From: Myxococcales bacterium
GTDB lineage: Bacteria; Myxococcota_A; Polyangia; Polyangiales; Ga0077539
Reading direction: 5' to 3'
DNA length: 64,000 bases
NCBI GenBank assembly: GCA_016792845.1
Contig: JAEUKH010000043.1
Location: 89,846 to 153,845, forward strand
Under the pieces are notes generated by a model, which had not been told where the DNA came from, made no database searches, and worked only from the letters and a program-made list of their open reading frames with translations. A program made the translations under genes and the position numbers. Within the stretch, counting starts at the first letter, position 1. Every line of letters begins with the position of its first letter. Below, in pieces: positions 33,808 through 34,902 of this stretch.

Positions 33808-34902
33808 TCAGCGCGCGGGGGTGCGGGTGCGCCCGGCCTTGGCGTCTTCGATGGCCGTGTACTCGCGCTCGAAGAGCACGCGCTGGTCGGTGACGATCTG
33901 GAGGTTGCGATCGTTCATGTCGGTGGGCTCGGCGCGCCCGAGGAGCGCCATCTGGCGGCCCACTTCGGCCAGCTTGTCGCAGATGTTCGACAGGAGGTCG
34001 AGGTCGCGGGTGCGGCGGTCTTTGCCCGCGTAGTTGAGCCGGTACTCTTCGAAGACCGCGTTGGCCTCGTTGCCGAGCTGCCCCTGGAGGTCTTGAAAGC
34101 TCACGCCCTGGCGCGACTTGCGGATCTCTTCGAGCTCGGTGCGGTAGGTGCGCAGCGACTCTTCGACGATGCCGATGTTCTTGCTGTTGTAGTCGCCGTT
34201 GAGCCCCTTGCCCTCGAGGGCGCGCATCTTGTCGCCCACCAGCACGAGGCTGTCGATCATGCGCTGGATGAGCTCGGGGCGGCGGGTCGAGCGCGACTTG
34301 CCCGCGAAGTGCGTGTCGTAGAGCTTGAACTGCCCGTTGGCCACTTCGGCGAGGGTGCTCGCCTGCTCGTCGGCGGTGCCCATGCTCACCGACTCGACGA
34401 TCTCGCCGCGCTCGGCGCGGTACATCTTCAAGTTCTCGCGCACCACGTCGATGTCGGTCTGCGCGCCGGTCACCGTGGCGCCGAGCGCGACCATCTCTTC
34501 TTCGATGCGCTCGAGGTCTTCGATCATCTCGCCGAGGAGGCCGAGATCGCGGGTGTTGCGCGACTTACCTGCGAAGTGCCGGTGGTACACCGCGAAGGTC
34601 AGGTTGGCCTCGGTGCGGAGCGCGTCGAACTCGACGAACTCGTCGCCCTGGCTCTTGGCCTTCATGATCTCTTTGCGCTCATTTTCGAACATGAGCACCG
34701 TGTCTTTGACATCGGTGGCGAGGGCGTCGCGGTCTTTACCGCGGGGCAACTTGGCCAGCTCGGTGGCGAGCGAGCGGATGCGGTTGAGGAGCGAATTGAG
34801 GTCTTCGAGTGAGCGCGTCACGCGCGACTGCCCCGCAAACTGGGCATCGTAGGAGCCGCTGATCTCGTTGAACTGCTGCTGAAGTTGGGCGAGGGTAGCC
34901 AT
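33808..34902 (-). CDS. Hypothetical all-alpha protein with four ~90-aa internal repeats (Y-x-x-H/Y-F/Y-A-G-K/Q-S/D-R-x-T-R motif)
   Basis: Four repeats: YDAQFAGQSRVTRSLEDLNSLL / YHRHFAGKSRNTRDLGLLGEMI / YDTHFAGKSRSTRRPELIQRMI / YRLNYAGKDRRTRDLDLLSNIC. Each is followed by a helical segment ending with …NL..V.E.L..YR.E..EI. No family recognised. Confidence 0.6.
   Translation of the reverse strand: MATLAQLQQQFNEISGSYDAQFAGQSRVTRSLEDLNSLLNRIRSLATELAKLPRGKDRDALATDVKDTVLMFENERKEIMKAKSQGDEFVEFDALRTEANLTFAVYHRHFAGKSRNTRDLGLLGEMIEDLERIEEEMVALGATVTGAQTDIDVVRENLKMYRAERGEIVESVSMGTADEQASTLAEVANGQFKLYDTHFAGKSRSTRRPELIQRMIDSLVLVGDKMRALEGKGLNGDYNSKNIGIVEESLRTYRTELEEIRKSRQGVSFQDLQGQLGNEANAVFEEYRLNYAGKDRRTRDLDLLSNICDKLAEVGRQMALLGRAEPTDMNDRNLQIVTDQRVLFEREYTAIEDAKAGRTRTPAR

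Follow-up and report, generated by a model that had tools for sequence, protein, structure and literature searches.

A 64,000-nucleotide stretch of DNA from a Myxococcales bacterium (contig JAEUKH010000043.1, positions 89,846 to 153,845; hereafter the window, meaning the whole of the DNA analyzed) encodes a protein made of four related three-helix bundles in tandem, each with the same short arginine-bearing loop between its first two helices. The protein belongs to an unannotated family of about 410 representatives at 50% identity. We propose, with a probability of roughly 0.45, that the loop motif is mainly architectural, providing an Arg/Glu/Tyr staple at the unit junctions of a compact docking scaffold. 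The gene, referred to below as the repeat gene, is the following open reading frame (ORF):

33808..34902, minus strand: repeat-protein ORF, complete, with an ATG start and 364 aa plus a stop codon

Its first methionine occupies window positions 34902-34900. The codon-position GC content of the frame (0.65/0.39/0.91) indicates that it is a real coding gene in a window of about 70% GC. An antisense ORF of 355 aa (33745..34812, plus strand) covers nearly all of the repeat gene; its codon-position GC of 0.92/0.41/0.67 identifies it as a shadow frame, and its apparent "conservation" across loci in ORF clustering is a mere mirror of the sense gene. A database entry 100% identical to the repeat protein, JNK72_22675, is labeled "hypothetical protein" and comes from a metagenome-assembled genome (MAG) of a Myxococcales bacterium. 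At a pI of 5.25 the protein is acidic (the family median is 5.6, and units 2 and 4 lie at about 4.6-4.8), and its sequence contains neither a hydrophobic N terminus nor a transmembrane segment; it is soluble, cytoplasmic and all-helical, with no catalytic signature. The alignment and the AlphaFold model were built from 33808-34899, omitting the start codon, and residue numbers given here are protein numbers.

The first-pass annotation, made from the letters alone, had described four helical repeats of about 90 aa, and all four of the strings that it quoted are present in the protein. The units, delimited by AlphaFold2 with DSSP, by hhalign and by covariation, are as follows:

34648..34902, minus strand: unit 1, aa 1-85, three-helix bundle with helices at about 4-22, 32-50 and 56-84
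34378..34647, minus strand: unit 2, aa 86-175, three-helix bundle with helices at about 87-110, 120-141 and 147-172
34102..34377, minus strand: unit 3, aa 176-267, three-helix bundle with helices at about 177-198, 209-231 and 237-264
33811..34101, minus strand: unit 4, aa 268-364, three-helix bundle with helices at about 269-291, 301-324 and 328-355

Each unit carries one signature loop:

34813..34839, minus strand: unit 1 signature loop FAGQSRVTR, aa 22-30, joining helix A to helix B
34549..34575, minus strand: unit 2 signature loop FAGKSRNTR, aa 110-118, between helices A and B
34282..34308, minus strand: unit 3 signature loop FAGKSRSTR, aa 199-207, between helices A and B
34006..34032, minus strand: unit 4 signature loop YAGKDRRTR, aa 291-299, between helices A and B

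A pattern search of the protein with [YF]AG[KQ][SD]RxTR places the loop starts at residues 22, 110, 199 and 291, at spacings of 88, 89 and 92. Pairwise identity between the four units is 23-37%. When profiles of the units, drawn from 59 family members, were compared with one another by hhalign, all six pairs matched at a probability of 98.1-99.6% and E values of 1e-13 to 1e-24; judged from these profiles, the four units are homologous to one another, far beyond chance, which bears out the repeat structure. No tandem repeat is detectable in the gene at the DNA level, and the duplication of the units is thus ancient, neither recent nor an artifact of assembly.

Structure prediction, one of the checks that the first-pass annotation had suggested, gives a confident model of four three-helix bundles. 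With a 59-sequence alignment as input, AlphaFold2 returned a mean predicted local distance difference test score (pLDDT) of 94.1 and a predicted template modeling score (pTM) of 0.85, with twelve helices, three per unit, and zero strands. Unit 4 ends in a short disordered C-terminal tail, and pLDDT falls below 50 only in the last 4 residues of the protein. Averaged over blocks of 10 residues, pLDDT at the signature loops is 85-94, and the loops of units 2-4 include a three-residue helical turn at R-x-T. Between consecutive units there are 2-4 nonhelical residues, often including glycine, and no continuous helix crosses the junctions.

Covariation supports the same architecture independently of AlphaFold. 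Mean-field direct-coupling analysis was applied to 390 family sequences (effective sequence number, Meff, about 275 for 364 columns). Couplings are strongest between antiparallel helices of one unit, in the pairs A-B, B-C and A-C (e.g., V220-R254, L194-M215, N36-R76 and F284-F344), which confirms the three-helix-bundle topology without recourse to the model; in unit 1, the internal couplings join A1-B1, B1-C1 and A1-C1. The top couplings between units are H109-D309 (rank 2, units 2 and 4), K202-K310 (rank 6, unit 3 loop with helix B4) and E98-G315 (rank 10, units 2 and 4), and R264-L272, L211-E313 and S263-L311 are also strong. Variable positions of the loops couple with the end of their own unit's helix C and with the next unit (V28-S84 and V28-F89). 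The unit 2 loop residue N116 couples with two residues at the beginning of helix A3, E179 and T183, and in unit 3 R208 couples with E313 and K202 with K310, both on helix B4. We read this pattern as placing the loops at the junctions between units and the four bundles in a compact body, not a straight rod.

Alignment of all four units from many members yields the unit consensus L...AN..F..Y...FAG.SR.TRDL.LL...I..L......M..L (loop) V...L..Y..E..EI..A. The first-pass annotation had called the loop core invariant; this stands for F/Y-A-G, the arginine and T/S-R, which are held family-wide, while the K/Q and S/D positions vary and the core is shorter than claimed, namely [FY]-A-G-x-x-R-x-[TS]-R. 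In the "AGKS" stretch the K position varies among Q, H, R and M and the S position among A, D, N and P, so that only A-G-x-x-R is conserved. The first loop arginine and the glutamate of helix C are invariant in all units, and the tyrosine, alanine, glycine and second arginine are at least 90% conserved. From the consensus spacing of helix C (V-4-L-3-Y-3-E-4-I-3-A), the glutamate would occupy a d-type position on the hydrophobic stripe, and the tyrosine of helix A (L-4-A-4-F-3-Y-4-F) would do likewise. Some invariants are specific to a unit: TRRP replaces TRDL in unit 3, Q317-M318 and N330/N333 mark unit 4, and A-N on helix A is shared by units 2-4. The couplings of N281 with M318, N333 and V337 in the direct-coupling analysis point to a layer of buried polar residues in the middle of the bundle.

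The family is sizeable and its architecture is constant. A word-indexed search found 209 relatives of the window protein; the 120 listed are 360-438 aa long, with alignments to nearly all of them extending over at least 93% of the query, and the named ones among them are "hypothetical protein" entries of Myxococcales, Polyangiales or Deltaproteobacteria MAGs. An exhaustive profile search of 1.84 billion representatives returned 410 proteins at E <= 1e-3, 247 of them at E <= 1e-30. Among the 150 listed of these 410, complete members measure about 341-400 aa and can be aligned over their full length without a break, so that both the number of units, four, and which unit is which are fixed across the family. 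Four units in 345-400 aa describe almost every complete member. No complete relative with another number of repeats was seen among the listed family members, except for a singleton of 667 aa (P0246, locus L060, 6001-8004), in which units 2-4 stand behind a 400-aa cysteine-rich N-terminal region (CNDCAMC..., CTTWFC). That region has no Pfam match, and a frameshifted unit 1 was not found nearby. Genes of the Hsp70 family lie about 3 kb downstream of the P0246 gene. As a singleton fusion without a Pfam domain, P0246 was set aside as uninformative.

In all cases of known host, the family is confined to Myxococcota, represented by MAGs of the Polyangiales type and by Lujinxingia sediminis, which is in culture. 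Among GTDB species representatives, scanned with an alignment of 14 closer sequences, it turned up in 52 genomes, all of them MAGs and nearly all labeled Myxococcota, Polyangiales or Deltaproteobacteria; a few record titles read Pseudomonadota, Enterobacteriaceae or "bacterium." When the most divergent member (32% identity) served as query, 119 relatives were recovered; they span 268-402 aa, the great majority being complete proteins of 342-402 aa, and include L. sediminis (EA187_01100; Bradymonadales) and a Labilithrix MAG. Named isolates of Myxococcus, Sorangium or Nannocystis did not turn up, in searches whose name-returning forms were word or pattern limited and leave their absence unproven. 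Automatic annotations of family members as "transaldolase," "hemoglobin-like flavoprotein," "regulator of replication initiation timing" and "translin family" were disregarded, each being single and mutually inconsistent with the others.

How might such a protein work? We propose that the four ancient tandem bundles, each of about 90 aa and antiparallel, would pack into one compact body rather than a spectrin-like rod, with each unit orthologous across the family and the whole serving as a soluble, acidic, nonenzymatic scaffold. The two loop arginines could form a buried polar or salt-bridge staple with the core-facing glutamate near the end of helix C and with the tyrosine of helix A. This putative staple would sit where each bundle ends and the following unit joins on, and fix the geometry of the four bundles; the assembled surface would most likely be a docking platform for another protein or a ligand. 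We favor an architectural role because the GKS residues are variable, the protein is acidic, the loops are confidently ordered, and the variable loop residues covary with neighboring units. Several points weigh against it. The proposed Arg-Glu-Tyr contact derives from heptad positions and conservation, not from model coordinates, and invariant residues cannot covary, so covariation cannot directly test it. Couplings below about rank 60 scatter over all unit pairs and were treated as noise. Eight invariant or near-invariant arginines exceed the usual needs of fold stability and could mark a binding site. Finally, "docking scaffold" is a default reading, in which the partner or ligand is only putative.

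The extreme conservation of those eight arginines is what speaks for an anion receptor, in which the arginine-rich A-B loops, separately or in one pocket, would bind polyanions or ligands that bear phosphate, for instance nucleic acid, polyphosphate, the head groups of phospholipids or a second messenger of the nucleotide type. This takes up the suggestion of the first-pass annotation that the motif looks like one that binds, for example, phosphate or nucleic acid. We consider this possible, if on the unlikely side. The acidic pI is unusual for a binder of nucleic acid or polyanions, the lack of conservation of "GKS" makes the loop unlike a P-loop, and the invariant glutamate that every unit has along with its arginines could neutralize the charges internally. 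The location of the loops at unit junctions and the absence of a sequence match to any known anion-binding family also count against it. A more specific version, in which the four pseudosymmetric loops jointly form one composite receptor site for a polyanion (a nucleotide second messenger, polyphosphate or a lipid resembling a phosphoinositide, for example), seems to us distinctly unlikely; if true, predatory Myxococcota (Polyangia and Bradymonadia) would have a class of ligand receptor of their own, new and built of helical repeats.

The remaining explanations draw in part on the genomic surroundings of the repeat gene, which in the window are:

24373-25791, minus strand: fatty-acid desaturase
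26994-28898, minus strand: HtpG/Hsp90 (PF00183 at 1.9e-135)
28981-30669, minus strand: 562-aa coiled-coil protein with weak SMC-like matches
30768-33233, minus strand: MVP-like protein, 821 aa (PF11978 at 1.8e-28; MVP_shoulder, Vault_3 and Band_7 matches)
33369-33743, plus strand: response regulator
34942-35610, minus strand: PF01553 (PlsC-type) acyltransferase, separated by 39 nt from the repeat gene downstream of it
35744-36319, plus strand: peroxiredoxin
36356-38356, plus strand: OPT transporter

The HtpG/Hsp90, coiled-coil and MVP-like genes are consecutive on the same strand (26994-33233, minus). Farther along lie a gene for an FHA-domain sigma-54 enhancer-binding protein (39078-40502, plus) and then one for a Ser/Thr protein kinase (40600-41595, plus); L007, the closest relative, likewise has an FHA-sigma54 activator at a distance of a few kilobases from its repeat gene. 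Neighbors in the window (MVP, response regulator, peroxiredoxin, OPT transporter, a QueE-like protein, the coiled-coil protein and the acyltransferase) were compared by tblastn with 59 related loci, using flanks of up to 6-10 kb. Across these loci the repeat gene has no conserved universal genomic partner.

The most frequent companion is the acyltransferase, found upstream on the same strand in 24 of the 59 loci. In most of these the two genes are immediate neighbors, against a background of other flanking genes that vary; all-against-all clustering of the flank ORFs found no other recurrent neighbor. This pairing, and the interval of only 39 nt in the window, might suggest that the repeat protein is a lipid-related partner of the PlsC-type enzyme, acting as a phasin- or apolipoprotein-like coat or as a scaffold that places the enzyme at the membrane. 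We think this quite improbable. The acyltransferase-bearing loci form a single clade on the neighbor-joining tree of the repeat protein, with one loss (L028), so inherited gene order explains the pairing. The enzyme gene is absent from all other clades, including Lujinxingia, where GlnE neighbors the repeat gene; malic enzyme, citrate synthase or CPSase regions do so in other acyltransferase-free loci, these neighbors being unrelated housekeeping genes. In five loci, gaps of 0.5-3.4 kb separate the two genes and neither has been lost. One of these gaps, in L004, contains an IS605 OrfB/TnpB-type gene (PF01385, PF07282; 5810-6937), and the corresponding interval of the otherwise near-identical L005 has no called genes. 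Phasins and apolipoproteins, moreover, have disordered or amphipathic repeats, which confidently folded compact bundles do not resemble, and the Pfam scans matched neither group. The adjacency is clade specific and is weak evidence of coupling. Two acyltransferase and repeat-gene pairs occur in one MAG (JADJAE01, isolate AalW_18-Q3-R10-53_BATAC.29; L017 and L045). The repeat protein of L045, at 49% identity, sits on a long branch within the acyltransferase-bearing clade; bin contamination, a pseudogene or a diverging paralog may each account for it.

A promoter-like element between the two genes further argues against the enzyme partnership. In many loci, including ones with the acyltransferase directly upstream, a -35/-10-like pair ends 7-12 nt before the ATG (L010, L012, L013, L018, L019-L023, L026, L046, L049 and L054, among others), as in TTGCTC-17-TAGGCT-10 nt-ATG of L010 and TATACT-7 nt-ATG of L046 and L049. 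The window version is weaker (ATGACG-17-TAGAAG, 14 nt before the ATG; 34917-34945), and a consensus scan calls no site there. A search for sigma-54 promoters upstream of homologs gave no matches. Because the pair lies just before the ATG, the repeat gene is probably transcribed on its own, into an mRNA whose leader is very short or absent.

The three-helix bundle fold that the units have in common with the BAG domain of Hsp70 nucleotide-exchange factors (PF02179) raises the alternative of a BAG-like co-chaperone, whose bundles would bind an Hsp70-type ATPase domain or work with the nearby Hsp90. Human BAG5 has several BAG domains in tandem. Identity between the BAG domain and the repeat protein is 6%, with no profile match, and designed bundles match about equally well; we regard a co-chaperone role as highly improbable. 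Least credible of all is an accessory or cargo protein of a neighboring MVP (vault-like) particle, for although the MVP-like gene ends 575 nt from the repeat gene and MVP lies within 1-3.3 kb in the two closest relatives, an opposite-strand response-regulator gene stands between them in the window, other genes do so in L007, the other 57 of the 59 loci have no MVP within the fetched flanks, and no sequence link was found, so that synteny largely refutes it.

The first-pass annotation had held that adjacency to MVP adds interest to the repeat protein, a view the wider comparison does not sustain. MVP and peroxiredoxin are kept in two loci only (L007 and L008, the closest relatives at 74% identity); the adjacency is shallow synteny, and the repeat gene appears not to be functionally tied to the MVP gene. 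Bacterial MVP homologs, including those of Myxococcales, have been described (bioRxiv 10.1101/872010), and a term search of that preprint found no mention of the gene neighbors of MVP. We found no literature on the four-unit repeat family itself.

The protein belongs to a newly defined, unannotated family of about 410 clusters at 50% identity, in which the number of units stays at four and the signature loop is sharply defined. Its predicted fold is confident and no solved structure matches the whole, making it a reasonable candidate for a new Pfam or domain-of-unknown-function (DUF) entry and for structural genomics, and the cultured host L. sediminis (EA187_01100) makes experiments possible. 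Its structural kind, a helical repeat of three-helix bundles, is ordinary and will not greatly surprise a specialist. The family currently bears on no long-standing question; a link to bacterial vault-like proteins would have raised its importance and is not supported.

Comparison with known families upheld the statement of the first-pass annotation that the protein matches none that could be named, and a known repeat family with established function, looked for by both sequence and fold, was not found. Searches of Pfam, NCBIfam, PADLOC, PHROGs and PDB sequences, with the single sequence and with profiles, gave no match at threshold for the window protein. Among antiphage and phage profiles, only GajA appeared in PADLOC, at E 0.0053 and without a qualifying stretch, and PHROG matches numbered zero. 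Foldseek found no whole-chain match in PDB or BFVD, the best PDB entry being the MUN domain of Munc13 (E 0.017; template modeling [TM] score 0.19); the fold searches match only generic single three-helix bundles, namely, the BAG domain, designed bundles and spectrin. The unit is thus a generic three-helix bundle, and the four-unit assembly and signature loop have no described counterpart.

The only recurrent Pfam family is DASH_Dad4 (PF08650), which matches 35 of the 59 members weakly (best E 2.4e-6 in the scan). Dad4 is a 72-aa fungal kinetochore subunit of the DASH complex, and only unit 3 of the repeat protein resembles it: the match spans about 48 residues of the hairpin of helix B, loop and helix C (residues about 210-265; window about 34108-34275), at 24.9-28.1 bits against a cutoff of 29.8 in five members examined individually. 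We rejected membership, as the match is below threshold and limited to one hairpin, probably a chance resemblance inherited by the whole family. Precomputed annotations list PF08650 for some family members. The resemblance could mislead automated annotation. A P-loop (Walker A, GxxxxGK[ST] between a beta strand and a helix) was also rejected; the K and S vary, the motif lies between two helices and there are no strands.

Chemoreceptor bundles of the 4HB_MCP_1, HBM and CHASE3 types show a weak sequence resemblance, with PF12729 at E 0.0037 and 17.3 bits against a cutoff of 27 for the window protein. This profile matches 6 of the 59 members at E <= 0.1, and in one examined individually (P0112) it just exceeds the cutoff (30.3 versus 27 bits). 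The ligand sites of these sensors use Arg and Tyr on helical bundles. However, the PF12729 match crosses a unit boundary of the repeat protein, and 4HB_MCP_1-type domains are periplasmic four-helix bundles flanked by transmembrane helices, whereas the repeat protein is soluble, with three-helix units and no hydrophobic segment. Spectrin-type repeat proteins (spectrin, alpha-actinin and utrophin, and bacterial EzrA) are among the closest known systems. A spectrin repeat is a three-helix bundle of about 106 residues; the unit described here is a three-helix bundle but spans 85-97 residues, which leaves the likeness ambiguous. The spectrin profile (PF00435) gives no match at E <= 1 for the window protein and is absent from the 25 most frequent families at E <= 0.1 across the 59 members; the sole entry to show up in this comparison was PF24531, weakly, in 6 of the 59. 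In spectrin, a continuous helix links the repeats into an elongated rod, whereas the repeat protein has no such linking helix. On the features tested, therefore, the repeat protein stands outside the spectrin, BAG, 4HB_MCP and P-loop families.
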